DNA of 4,655 nucleotides from IMG/VR virus record IMGVR_UViG_2671180458_000007; one strand, 5' to 3'. Position 1 is the first letter of the stretch. Each line of letters opens with the position of its first letter. The stretch is from a virus. Taxonomy: Duplodnaviria > Heunggongvirae > Uroviricota > Caudoviricetes. The translations under genes were made by a program, and so were the position numbers. Under the pieces are notes generated by a model. The model ran no database searches and was not told the DNA's origin. It was given only the letters and a program-made list of their open reading frames with translations. Of the stretch, positions 1-4,328 are shown piece by piece.

Positions 1-310
1 ATTTTGCGTTATCGGGAATATCGGGAAGTGACCGCCGCAGCCGTTCCGGCTTCGTCCACTGGTAAGTATTTTTCGCGCTCTCCCTCCGTTGTTGAGAACG
101 GCGGCGGTATGCCAGCAACGCAAGGACGCATGTTCGTATGTTGCACATATCCACGCCGTTAAGCTCAATACCATCACGGCGCATCACCTCAGCAACCACA
201 CGCGCATAATTTTCGGCGGTCACGCTGTCCGGCTGCGTGGCCTGTTCGTCAGCCTGCTGGCTGATTCCGGCGACGCGGCGGATTAATCCCAGTATTTCGG
301 CTTCTGTCAT
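1..310 (-). CDS. Hypothetical protein, partial (N-terminal 103 aa in window; 3' end lies beyond the left edge)
   Basis: ATG is the reverse complement of 308-310 and the frame stays open to position 1 (begins MTEAEILGLIRRVAGISQQADEQ...). A G-rich Shine-Dalgarno-like GGGGG sits 4-9 nt upstream. It follows the terminator and promoter cassette downstream of the capsid gene. No recognisable motif; lying downstream of a capsid gene it could be a head-tail connector or adaptor, but that is speculation. It is not in the supplied ORF track because it has no stop inside the window. Confidence 0.5.
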   Translation of the reverse strand, partial: MTEAEILGLIRRVAGISQQADEQATQPDSVTAENYARVVAEVMRRDGIELNGVDMCNIRTCVLALLAYRRRSQQRRESAKNTYQWTKPERLRRSLPDIPDNAK

Positions 311-463: not shown

Positions 464-561
464 CGATAAAATCACAAAAATGCGCTTTTTTCCGCGCCGC
501 CCGCCCCGTGTTCATACCCACCCCACCGGGAGGACCCGCAAAAAAGGCGGCTGGTGCCGCC
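464..561. repeat. Copy A of a ~100 bp conserved intergenic cassette (second copy at 3001-3098)
   Basis: By-eye alignment: aaaaatgcgcttttttccgcgccgcccgccccgtgt...cccaccccaccgggaggacccgcaaaaaag (A) against aaaaaatgcgcctttttccgcgccctcccgccccgtgt...cccaccccaccaggaggacccgcaaaaaag (B). Both copies sit immediately 3' of a minus-strand stop codon and end in a terminator hairpin. Confidence 0.7.
538..561 (-). terminator. Rho-independent terminator after the protease-capsid gene
   Basis: On the minus strand: GGCGGC-ACCA-GCCGCC hairpin (6-bp GC stem, 4-nt loop) followed by TTTTTTG, starting 6 nt after the TGA stop at 568-570. Confidence 0.7.
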
Positions 562-567
562 TTGTTG

Positions 568-2457
568 TCAGAGTGAATCTGTCCCGCCTGATTTGACCAT
601 ACCGCGATAATCCAGAGCTGCCACACCTGCATCAATACGGACTTTCCAGGCCACGCCGTCAACGATAAAACCTTCCTGCTGTTCAAGGTAAGGCTCGTCA
701 TTGCCATCAAGATAAGCCACCTCGATTGTGTCCGTTCCCTGTGCGGAAAGCATGTACCATTGTTTTTCGCTGATATCATCAAGGCGGGGATCGACGATGA
801 TATCAAGTAGCTTGTGGTACGGGTTAAAGATCCCGCTGTTTTTATCAGCCCCGAAAGGTGCGGTTGAGTTAATCATCTGCAACGCGCGATCTTCCAGTGC
901 TGCCGGAACTAAAAGGAATTTAGGCGCAATATTCAGCACTTCGCCATTTTTGTCCTTCTGTGTGCGCATCAGGTGACGTGCTGCACTAAGTCCCGGTGTT
1001 GTCAGTCCTGCTTCAATCAGGTTGCTGTGTTTTTTGTCAAACAGCGTTATTCCGTCAGAAAGTTTTACGTTGCCTGTAAGCACCAGATTAACCAGATTTC
1101 CCACCGTTCTTGATGCTGCACGGCCCATAGCCATTGGCACCGTTGATAACTGATCAAGGTCATCATTGATTATCGCCTGGCGGGTAATGCTGAAAATATT
1201 CCCGTAAGTAGCCAGCGCGATGGGTTCACCGCGATCGCTGGTGGTGATGTATTTATATTCTGCCCCTTCCGGAACTTTGTTTAACGTTGAGAAGCCATTC
1301 ATACCAACGCGGCGGGCTTCCCGGAAGTTTGAAAGGGAACCTTTTTTCGTCCACTGGCGGAATGTTTCGCCGCTGTGCTCCCAGCCTGCAAGCACTGATT
1401 TTTCAGCGCCACCAGCAAGGATATCGGTAAAATCGCTGCTGCTGTGGGTGAATGCCGCGTTTACTATCTGCGAGCGTGTGCTGTAGCTGCCCGTGCTTAT
1501 ACCACGATGGGTTAATGATGCCTGTGCCATATCGAAAAGGCTCATCATGGCGTAAGGATTACCGCGTTCGGCCCGTTCGTGACCAAGACGCGCATTAAGC
1601 CCCTGACGCATGGCATCGCCAGTTATATTGCCGTTATCCGTGTACGCGTAGTAAAGATTTGCGGGGGTGGTTTTGTTTGTTGGCGTTGATTCTTTACCCA
1701 TAGCGAGTAAAAGGCGTTCGCGTGCATTCTCAACGCTACATTCTGAATCCGCAAGACAACTTATAGCCAGGTCGTTATATCTTCCGTTGAAGGTGCCAAA
1801 CAATTCACGGATGCCGTTAAGTCGTTCCTGTTCGCCACTGCCAGTTTTCTGGCTGATCATGCTTTTAATTTTTTCCGGCATATTTGAAAAATCTCCGATT
1901 CGTTTTGATTCAATTCGGGCCATTGCTGTAATCGCGGGTATAACCTCATCTGCGAAACCGTTAGCCTTACACTCATTGCCATCCATCCAGGTTTCCGCCT
2001 CCATCATGGAGGTGATTTCCTGTTTGCTCCTGCCCGTTCTTCCGGCATAGGTTTCTGCCATCGTGTCGCCCAGCTTGTCCATCAGATCAGCAAAGCGGCG
2101 AACGTCGCCCGACACTCCGGCAGTAACACCACGGGGGGCATGTATCATCATCATCGCGTTTTCAGGCATAACGATATGATCTCCACACATGGCAATAAAC
2201 GAGGCCATAGAAGCCGCCATGCCTTCAATGTGTACGATTTTTTTTGCCGGATGATTTTTCAGAGCGTTATAGATAGCCAGCCCTTCAAAGATGTCGCCAC
2301 CAGGTGAATGGATGCGAAGATGGATTTCAGACGCATTACCACACGCGTTGATCTCGTCAGTAAGTGCCGATGCTTTTACACCGTACCCGCCGATCTCGTC
2401 ATAAATGCGCACATAGACAACATCTGCCATAGCCTTAATGGAAAACCATGTTTTCAT
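568..2457 (-). CDS. Prohead protease / major capsid fusion protein: N-terminal ClpP-family (S14) serine protease domain, linker or scaffold-like region, C-terminal putative major capsid domain (629 aa)
   Basis: Long intact ORF. The N-terminal ~190 aa carry ClpP signatures visible in the translation: HSPGGDIFEGLAIYNAL (ClpP INSPGG...AG.AIYD motif), GMAASMASFIA (active-site Ser motif G.AASMG), MMIHAPRG (active-site His motif MIHQP). The remaining ~430 aa are too long for a protease alone. Assigning them to a capsid domain rests on known ClpP-type prohead protease-capsid fusions in prophages, not on a motif I can verify by eye. ATG at 2455-2457 is preceded by AGGGG about 7 nt upstream and overlaps the upstream ORF stop (ATGA). 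Confidence 0.85.
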   Translation of the reverse strand: MKTWFSIKAMADVVYVRIYDEIGGYGVKASALTDEINACGNASEIHLRIHSPGGDIFEGLAIYNALKNHPAKKIVHIEGMAASMASFIAMCGDHIVMPENAMMMIHAPRGVTAGVSGDVRRFADLMDKLGDTMAETYAGRTGRSKQEITSMMEAETWMDGNECKANGFADEVIPAITAMARIESKRIGDFSNMPEKIKSMISQKTGSGEQERLNGIRELFGTFNGRYNDLAISCLADSECSVENARERLLLAMGKESTPTNKTTPANLYYAYTDNGNITGDAMRQGLNARLGHERAERGNPYAMMSLFDMAQASLTHRGISTGSYSTRSQIVNAAFTHSSSDFTDILAGGAEKSVLAGWEHSGETFRQWTKKGSLSNFREARRVGMNGFSTLNKVPEGAEYKYITTSDRGEPIALATYGNIFSITRQAIINDDLDQLSTVPMAMGRAASRTVGNLVNLVLTGNVKLSDGITLFDKKHSNLIEAGLTTPGLSAARHLMRTQKDKNGEVLNIAPKFLLVPAALEDRALQMINSTAPFGADKNSGIFNPYHKLLDIIVDPRLDDISEKQWYMLSAQGTDTIEVAYLDGNDEPYLEQQEGFIVDGVAWKVRIDAGVAALDYRGMVKSGGTDSL

Positions 2458-2879: not shown

Positions 2880-2903
2880 GCGCCTGTTTTTTGTAAATGT
2901 TTT

Positions 2904-2917
2904 CGGGAACGTTCCGG
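2904..2917. promoter_or_regulatory. Palindrome cGGGAACGTTCCgG, candidate dimeric regulator binding site
   Basis: Perfect 10-bp palindrome GGAACGTTCC at 2906-2915 with partly symmetric flanks. It lies in the promoter region between the upstream terminator (3076-3098) and the capsid operon and is absent from the otherwise similar region A. Confidence 0.35.
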
Positions 2918-3000
2918 TGATGAACAAAAAACAACCTGATTCGACACTAAAAATTTTTATTTCTCAACATATCAATAACTTATAGTGGTGGTGATGGTGC

Positions 3001-3098
3001 CATAAAAATCAAAAAATGCGCCTTTTTCCGCGCCCTCCCGCCCCGTGTACAGGCCCACCCCACCAGGAGGACCCGCAAAAAAGCCGGATTGCTCCGGC
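3001..3098. repeat. Copy B of the ~100 bp conserved intergenic cassette (first copy at 464-561)
   Basis: See copy A. It sits immediately 3' of the stop of the 3106-3378 gene and ends in a terminator hairpin. Confidence 0.7.
3076..3098 (-). terminator. Rho-independent terminator after the small regulator-like gene
   Basis: On the minus strand: GCCGGA-GCAA-TCCGGC hairpin followed by TTTTTTG, 8 nt after the TAA stop at 3106-3108. Confidence 0.7.
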
Positions 3099-3105
3099 TG
3101 TGTGA

Positions 3106-3378
3106 TTAGCTGTCCTGGTAATTGCGCCATATTTCATCACCAGCACCATCTATACCCATTTCGGCACAAGTGCGATTAACTGCATTTCTCAGGTCTCCGA
3201 AATTATCAGGCGGCTCCGGTGGCCTCTGTGCCTTCCTGGAACATTCCAGCCGTCGCATCGTGATGTGATGCCGTTCCTTGTCTGTCTCCACCAGCATCAT
3301 GACTTCACCCCATCGCGCCGCCGCCCTCCGGTAAAATCCTTTCGCTTCGAGTTCTTCCGCTATGCGGTCATGTACCAT
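3106..3378 (-). CDS. Small basic protein (~90 aa), possible PerC-like transcriptional regulator
   Basis: The ORF track gives 3106..3498 (130 aa), but that start overlaps the ssb 3' end by ~110 nt. The internal ATG at 3376-3378 (MVHDRIAEELEAKGFYRRAAARWGEVMMLVETDKERHHITMRRLECSRKAQRPPEPPD...) lies 10 nt after the ssb stop and has GAGGGGG 5-6 nt upstream. The PerC-like call rests on recalled resemblance of the N-terminal region and is unverified. Confidence 0.55.
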   Translation of the reverse strand: MVHDRIAEELEAKGFYRRAAARWGEVMMLVETDKERHHITMRRLECSRKAQRPPEPPDNFGDLRNAVNRTCAEMGIDGAGDEIWRNYQDS

Positions 3379-4085: not shown

Positions 4086-4314
4086 CCTTCACCTGTTCAC
4101 CTTTTGATATTTTATCTTTTAATTCATAATGTTAAGGGGTGAACAGTTTCACAAAAACTATTCACCAACTATTCACCACTGTTCACCCTTGAAGCTCAAT
4201 AAACAATCAAAAAGGTGAACAGTGAATAGTTTGGTGAACAGTTCATAAATAACTGTTCACCCTATAATATACTGATATAAAAGATATTTATGACAGAGTG
4301 AACAGTGGTGAACA
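4086..4314. repeat. Iteron array: ~11 copies of TGTTCACC/GGTGAACA (P4 type I iteron sequence) with AT-rich flanks; candidate crr- or ori-like cis replication site
   Basis: Exact or one-mismatch octamers at 4086, 4094, 4159, 4170, 4180, 4254 (TGTTCACC orientation) and 4138, 4214, 4222, 4233, 4297, 4307 (GGTGAACA orientation). Several are spaced 10-11 bp apart. Two ~50 bp imperfect direct repeats (4138-4188 and 4214-4262) each run from GGTGAACAGT to CTGTTCACCC. AT-rich stretches at 4101-4136 and 4262-4296. The array ends 15 bp from the stop of the flanking gene. Confidence 0.8.
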
Positions 4315-4328
4315 GTTATTCCATAAGT

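Follow-up and report, generated by a model that had tools for sequence, protein, structure and literature searches.

Probable lambda-type cos packaging sites in a duplicated intergenic repeat of an Escherichia coli phage satellite, with cosB arms resembling those of two phage classes

The two diverged copies of an intergenic repeat found in a viral DNA stretch of 4,655 nucleotides (IMG/VR record IMGVR_UViG_2671180458_000007, analysed at its full length and referred to below as the window) are, with an estimated probability of about 0.85, lambda-type cos packaging sites of a phage satellite. Each copy would represent a complete lambda-type cohesive-end site, in which cosQ, cosN and cosB succeed one another along the minus strand, in the sense in which the genes are transcribed.

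The original prediction, made from the letters of the window, described a cassette of about 100 bp including a terminator, duplicated at 464-561 (copy A) and 3001-3098 (copy B), and both copies are present there. They are located, as claimed, directly 3' of minus-strand genes, copy A following the protease-capsid fusion gene (end at 568) and copy B following the PerC gene (end at 3106). A repeat search in the window reported a sole pair, a direct repeat of 111 nt at 452-562 and 2989-3099 with the copies 2537 bp apart. The duplication itself stands, but the size was underestimated, since the full unit comprises ~200 bp (~349-563 and ~2887-3099, both copies in the orientation of the minus-strand genes), and the conserved part does not include the terminator stem. 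MAFFT alignment of the two intergenic regions indicated near-identity from the T-run to ~100 nt past it and a mean column identity of 78% across the whole aligned region; beyond the core, a weaker similarity of copies A and B continues for ~100 nt more. The distal matches, ttttttgtaaa (349-359 and 2887-2897) and gaacaaaaa (382-390 and 2922-2930), confirm the weaker similarity that had been noticed at 349-390 and 2887-2930, toward the next promoter region. The observation of the repeat was correct, and the element, judged by its sequence, appears to belong to a known kind, phage-derived cos sites in a PICI satellite.

The window corresponds to the late half of a ~10-kb PICI-type island, the closest genome being NZ_AP045170.1 (99.1% identity). 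In this genome the annotated island extends over ~10 kb, from the integrase gene by tRNA-Pro to the phrog_1561 gene, and is located next to tRNA-Pro, between yejM and yejO, outside any prophage. The island genes are read in one direction and encode an integrase, an HTH regulator, an Icd-like protein, a DUF4222 protein, a primase, SSB, PerC, the capsid fusion and the phrog_1561 protein, which is the organisation of a Gram-negative PICI. All genes of the window are on the minus strand, and their order is the primase C-terminus, iterons, an 81-aa ORF, SSB, PerC, a 64-aa ORF, the capsid fusion and the phrog_1561 ORF. The gene of the ClpP-like prohead protease/major capsid fusion (568-2457, minus strand; Pfam Phage_capsid_4 1e-54, CLP_protease 4e-33) separates the two cos sites. 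Copy A is directly followed downstream by the phrog_1561 gene (1-310, minus strand; PHROGs E-value 2e-53), which occupies the slot held by terS in phages and shares 76% identity with the final gene of the island EcCICFT073; its product had no PDB or Rpp match. This ORF stays open for 103 codons up to the window edge, and its relatives are annotated as 93 aa; the window bases 1-26 are unmatched in the closest genome, suggesting an island boundary or a variant end. Dense GGTGAACAG iterons in both orientations (4090-4320) are located just downstream of the primase gene; by position, this field is the satellite replication origin. The same iterons gave spurious Rfam miRNA matches. No homologues of TerS or Rpp were found in the island, either by phmmer searches against the PDB or by tblastn with RppA and two TerS proteins, and as a positive control the EcCICFT073 RppA found PDB entry 6HLK at 5e-31. 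The island does not correspond to a capsid-forming PICI (cf-PICI), which has terminase, portal, protease, capsid and connector genes of its own, as the protease-capsid fusion alone is present and no terminase or portal was found in the island.

In copy A, which is read on the minus strand in all its parts, the stem-loop GGCGGC-ACCA-GCCGCC (546-561; fold -18.6 kcal/mol, z -5.0), a predicted intrinsic terminator ending the protease-capsid gene, is followed by a T6 run (540-545) that abuts cosQ GGGTCCT (531-537); in lambda, the very same heptamer is found 23 nt upstream of the right end of the genome. In cosN, the 12 nt predicted to form the cohesive end, GGGCGGGCGGCG (495-506), have ACG on one side and CGG on the other; they align with lambda GGGCGGCGACCT, which lies between ACG and CGCGGG when the ends of NC_001416 are joined, and are identical in the phages Stx2_112808, 1720a-02 and CP-1639. 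The minus-strand order is TTTTTT-GC-GGGTCCT-(24 nt)-ACG-GGGCGGGCGGCG-CGGAAAAAAGCGCATTTTTGTGATTTTATC-GTCATCATCATCATG onward. The cosB arm (349-494) shows 83-87% identity to the cosB of VT1-Sakai and Stx2_112808 and contains the putative R-like motifs GTCATCATCATCATG (450-464), AAAAAGATGATGG (403-415) and TTGTTCGACATC (378-389). When 11 distinct A copies from islands were compared, no change was seen in cosQ, in cosN or in the R-like motifs, whereas the spacers between the motifs vary, the pattern expected of protein-binding sites.

Copy B, also on the minus strand, has the same general plan. The intrinsic terminator stem-loop AGCCGGA-GCAA-TCCGGCT (3082-3099), found by the terminator scan (-12.6 kcal/mol, z -2.6), ends PerC, and the T-run after it abuts the canonical cosQ heptamer GGGTCCT (3068-3074). 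The predicted cosN, GGGCGGGAGGGCG (3031-3043), is flanked by ACG and CGG and is one base longer than that of copy A. The cosB arm occupies 2887-3030, with phage homology stopping near 2914, and includes the putative R sites GGCACCATCACCACCAC (R3-like, 2985-3001), TTTTTAGTGTCGAA (2940-2953) and TTGTTCATCACC (2916-2927). A second minus-strand hairpin, GCGCCCCCG..CGGAGGCGC (2844-2872), is situated just past copy B, so that the inserted cos is enclosed by this hairpin on one side and the PerC terminator on the other. The hairpin region 2844-2885 is flanked by A- and T-runs and reads as a terminator on both strands; it also gave a weak match to ctRNA_p42d (E-value 0.13).

The likeness to lambda comprises the cosQ heptamer, the near-equal spacing, the ACG-GGGCGG with which the cohesive end starts and the CGCG beyond this end. 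The lambda genome ends with ...ACGGGTCCTTTCCGGTGATCCGACAGGTTACG and begins with GGGCGGCGACCTCGCGGGTTTTCGC, giving cosQ GGGTCCT, 23 nt and a 12-nt cohesive end, and in both copies GGGTCCT is followed by a 24-nt spacer, compared with 23 nt in lambda. Both copies contain a G-rich cohesive-end segment starting from GGGCGG, with ACG and CG(C)G flanks; the nick positions at cosN would correspond to those of lambda by analogy. Unlike these motifs, the cosN centre and the entire cosB sequence differ from those of lambda, which has cosQ, cosN and a cosB with R3-I1-R2-R1. Two occurrences of the signature GGGTCCT-N20-26-ACGGGGCGG were counted in the window, against none in 200 shuffles. When 13 cos sites were aligned, among them lambda and the experimentally validated EcCICFT073 cos sites, no variation was seen in GGGTCC, in the AC..GG..G of cosN or in the CGCG that follows. 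The cosB arms, which share 83-88% identity with real phage cosB, contain repeated motifs invariant among islands, and these repeats suggest the R sites of copies A and B. In BLAST searches of phage genomes, the homologues of the segment had the lysis genes on one side and the small terminase gene on the other, the position of cos, in mEp213, VT1-Sakai, 1720a-02, Stx2_112808, CP-1639, phi458 and PhiR40_1. A location of cosN elsewhere was considered, as the mEp213 record JQ182733 ends 57 nt past the match, and was rejected, since this record merely begins ahead of terS, and both lambda and another mEp213 record locate cosN within the G-rich core.

The predicted intrinsic terminators were confirmed in both copies as a GC hairpin with a T6 run on the transcribed strand, directly after the stop codon. 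The hairpin stems are unlike (GGCGGC..GCCGCC in copy A and GCCGGA..TCCGGC in copy B) and both pair. The similarity is not limited to the terminator stem, the conserved part starting after it. Where the satellite copies have the GC hairpin stem, the phage cos regions have TGATAAyCATTATCA. The GC hairpin with the T-run appears to be a satellite-specific intrinsic terminator of the PerC and capsid transcription units, lying outside cos. The palindrome TGATAAyCATTATCA was seen ~5 nt upstream of cosQ in lambda (48450-48470), VT1-Sakai, 1720a-02, CP-1639 and mEp213.

The conserved G-rich segment had been proposed to be a structured RNA, a G-quadruplex or a regulator site insulating and restarting transcription between modules. 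The reverse complement of 500-524 does read GGGG-T-GGG-N9-GGGG-C-GGG, the terminators are real, the transcribed strand carries the G-tracts and the minus-strand fold has z-scores of -1.8 and -2.4, all of which would suit an RNA element; however, these core folds are barely better than those of shuffled sequences (plus strand z -0.4 and -1.0). An Rfam search with a permissive E-value gave chance matches only, none overlapping either copy, and RNAalifold applied to 13 homologous sites, the suggested covariation check, found only three stems of 2-4 bp (-7.3 kcal/mol), with no conserved consensus structure and no meaningful covariation. The four G-tracts are missing from lambda, CFT073 phage 4 and EcCICFT073 cos1 and cos2, where the cosQ and cosN motifs are kept, which indicates that a G-quadruplex is not the conserved feature; moreover, one loop of the would-be quadruplex is 9 nt long. 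The segment lies 3' of a terminator and would be poorly transcribed, and the homologous phage sequence is a packaging site. A role of any of these three kinds is extremely improbable. A function beyond termination was rightly expected from the conserved sequence, yet a cos packaging site fits it instead of an RNA element or a G-quadruplex; a regulator binding site holds in the broad sense of protein binding, as at cos, and fails as a site of transcription regulation; and the unit is reusable in that it occurs elsewhere, but as packaging DNA derived from lambdoid phages and not as a module that insulates and restarts transcription. Two further candidates were rejected. Short ORFs run across the copies on both strands and overlap upstream genes or stop early, and the frame common to both copies results from DNA identity; the CAT/CAC codon runs, which might resemble a leader-peptide attenuator, are the conserved R3-like cosB motif of phages.

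Each full intergenic region was found in 144 of 5426 complete E. coli genomes (threshold, at least 80% coverage of the intergenic region), largely O157, O111, O121 and further STEC of human and bovine origin. All sampled islands have both copies at the same positions. Close relatives of the island are integrated inside terL of lambdoid prophages, splitting this gene (L016 9533-22840, L214 and L215). Scanning genome contigs with the capsid protein retrieved mostly distant phage capsids, and five loci were informative. In the PICI-like loci of Kluyvera, Yersinia, Buttiauxella and Moellerella (capsids 57-62% identical), cos is located directly after the capsid gene and none was found upstream of it; since these distant loci have the post-capsid cos alone, the post-capsid position looks older. 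In the Kluyvera and Buttiauxella loci (L017 4630-4845, L018 and L020 4685-5089), a TerS-like gene with 36-40% identity to Stx-phage TerS comes after the post-capsid cos, and from sequence these relatives appear to carry their own small terminase or Rpp-like protein.

Comparison of the phage homologues indicates that the two copies resemble cos sites of different classes. The part of copy A from 343/349 to 544 matches the whole cos of nine phages of the Stx/VT1-Sakai type at 86-89% identity, and copy B (2914-3081) shows 93.5% identity over 167 nt to 1720a-02 and CP-1639, between Rz and terS, with its core 97% identical to 1720a-02. The cosB of copy A has 83-87% identity to the VT1-Sakai/Stx2 class versus 70% to the 1720a-02 class, and that of copy B has 86-88% identity to the 1720a-02/CP-1639 class versus 64-67% to the VT1-Sakai class. 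Comparison of one phage group with the other gives 99.7% identity for TerL, 94-95% for the C-terminal two thirds of TerS and 100% for the cosQ-cosN core; the N-terminal DNA-binding part of TerS has 52-54% identity, and cosB ~70%, a background level of similarity. Inside each phage group, identity is 92-100% throughout. Phages lambda and 21 have a specificity cassette in which cosB and the N-terminus of TerS are matched. Both phage classes described here resemble this pair, as TerL is common to them and the N-terminus of TerS differs along with cosB. Two of the three embedding prophages have a class-A cos and TerS, and the third (L214, decayed) has another cosB class. We infer from this correspondence that the satellite offers a separate cos to helper terminases of two specificities.

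The following course of events would then be envisaged. The induced island would replicate to concatemers, helper TerS would bind the R-like repeats of cosB and TerL would nick cosN, leaving 12-nt 5' ends; packaging would proceed from cosN through cosB onward until a downstream cosQ-cosN ended the run. Because it has no Rpp or TerS, the island must present a phage-type cosB. Copy A would mimic the cosB class of VT1-Sakai/Stx2 and copy B that of 1720a-02/CP-1639, and the presence of both would permit packaging by helpers of either specificity; the helpers of this island are assigned by analogy. That both copies are in use, by two different helper classes, is plausible at somewhat less than even odds. 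Against joint use, the cosN of copy B differs from that of copy A in sequence and by one base, so that products packaged from B to A would have mismatched ends.

The island EcCICFT073, whose two cos sites proved functional in deletion and plasmid-transfer experiments (Fillol-Salom et al. 2018, PMC6092414; 2019, PMC6739421), provides the closest comparison: cos1 is needed for transfer, deletion of cos2 raises transfer and deletion of both abolishes it (PMC6092414). Cleavage by terminase to cohesive ends, with sufficiency for plasmid packaging, has been established by experiment for lambda and for these two sites (PMC6092414). EcCICFT073 cos1 acts via an Rpp-TerS heterodimer because its cosB is unlike that of the phage (PMC6739421; Murialdo and Feiss 2022, PMC9026076). 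Like the window, EcCICFT073 is a Gram-negative PICI with a related gene order (PerC, small ORF, capsid, ..., phrog_1561), two lambda-type cos sites with phage-like cosQ and cosN, and a GC hairpin with a T-run directly upstream of cosQ. Located in the CFT073 genome, cos1 is direct, is preceded by a hairpin and a T-run and lies immediately upstream of rppA; cos2 (L011 3265-3340) is inverted relative to cos1 and the island genes and lies upstream of phrog_1561, in the copy A slot. However, the sites of EcCICFT073 are inverted and flank rppA, whereas those of the window are direct repeats flanking the capsid module with no Rpp, and the EcCICFT073 cosB is unlike that of phages, whereas the arms of the window have 83-88% identity to two different classes of real phage cosB. 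Copies A and B accordingly do not correspond to the cos of an Rpp-dependent PICI, with no Rpp homologue found in the island and phage-like cosB arms. Two cos sites in a PICI have already been published, and the novelty is limited to the arrangement, with direct, phage-type sites of different classes and no Rpp.

Copy B shows a variability that bears on its origin. Across ~20 near-identical islands, GGGTCCT at the cosQ of the upstream copy is almost always replaced by AGGTACT, and the centre of its cosN is hypervariable, with at least six alleles among islands having 97-100% identical capsids, while the cosB arm is almost invariant; the islands with AGGTACT or variant cosN comprise L008, L009, L010, L016, L214, L215 and ~17 IMG/VR loci (e.g., L111 6150 and L116 4163). 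Copy B departs from this in the window and in its closest genome, where it has the canonical GGGTCCT. The pattern AGGTACT-N16-26-CACGGGGCGG was found in at least 120 viral contigs (IMG/VR, L094-L213), with a TerS gene just downstream in 80 of the 120 listed; this alternative signature is widespread, and AGGTACT is a genuine phage cosQ allele. Contigs with the AGGTACT signature contain several R3-like motifs, CATCATCATCATG, GCTGTCAGCAGCAGG and CATCATCAGCAGG; AGGTACT together with a class-B cosB was not seen in any phage among the matches listed. The variability of cosQ and cosN in copy B could result from recombination at cos, or from cutting and imperfect rejoining.

This allele variability, seen in copy B among near-identical islands and absent from the invariant copy A, keeps alive another explanation, in which only the post-capsid copy A works and copy B, having entered between two terminators, was left behind by recombination with a 1720a-02-like phage and is neutral or mildly harmful, like EcCICFT073 cos2. 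The post-capsid cos alone of the distant PICI-like loci agrees with it, as does the EcCICFT073 PerC hairpin, which is identical to that of copy B and is directly followed by the second hairpin, the same terminator pair with no cos between. The increased transfer after deletion of EcCICFT073 cos2 (PMC6092414) likewise indicates that a second cos need not help. On the other hand, copy B is full-length in all 144 of the 144 genomes holding the region, its cosB arm is almost invariant, its AGGTACT allele has the phage context given above and no look of decay, and in the window it has the canonical cosQ and a core 97% identical to that of 1720a-02. A non-functional leftover is, on this balance, rather unlikely. 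Arrival of copy B with a phage capsid module was also considered and rejected: the 64-aa ORF is not the helper gpW-like protein, and the satellite capsid fusion has only 51% identity to that of the embedding helper prophage, which encodes its own ClpP/capsid fusion.

The use of both sites can be extended to the suggestion that a satellite with neither terminase nor Rpp widens its helper range by carrying two tandem-oriented phage cos sites with different helper cosB classes, the hypervariable centre of the upstream cosN being a footprint of cutting and imperfect rejoining of heterologous ends; in most relatives the two sites would differ in the cosQ allele as well. All parts being taken together, this suggestion is a tentative one, more probably wrong than right. 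An extra phage-type cos might alternatively serve as an interference decoy, titrating or misdirecting the helper terminase or provoking unproductive cuts and so replacing Rpp. The island is without Rpp, yet PICIs typically interfere with their helpers (PMC6739421), and replication would give many phage-type cosB copies per cell; but this idea is purely speculative, and since any functional cos would titrate, the two classes would be left unexplained. Such a decoy is very improbable.

Other satellites offer partial parallels to this island. Cos-type SaPIs are represented by SaPIbov5 and by SaPIbov4, which has two putative cos sites (PMC5052747; PMC6092414). Like the window, they carry the cos of the helper itself instead of a terminase subunit, and a capsid homologue too; they differ in the Gram-positive host, the HNH-dependent terminase and an unrelated type of cos, with no sequence relationship. 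Helper-embedded PICIs (PMC10111431) are integrated inside terL of a lambdoid prophage, as are the close relatives of the window, and a 258-bp segment common to satellite and helper was reported at the cos position (PMC10111431). Two cos classes are not described in that paper, and the closest copy of the window is located at tRNA-Pro.

The helper phages able to mobilise a satellite are determined by its cos sites, and the islands described here are common in Shiga-toxin-producing E. coli (O157, O111, O121), with Stx-type and related lambdoid phages as the apparent helpers. For annotation, repeats of the "terminator plus G-tract" kind in such islands should be labelled as cos and not as regulatory RNA. 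If the two sites do serve two terminase specificities, they would represent a simple, protein-free alternative to Rpp for hijacking packaging, and satellite-helper pairings would be predictable from sequence alone.
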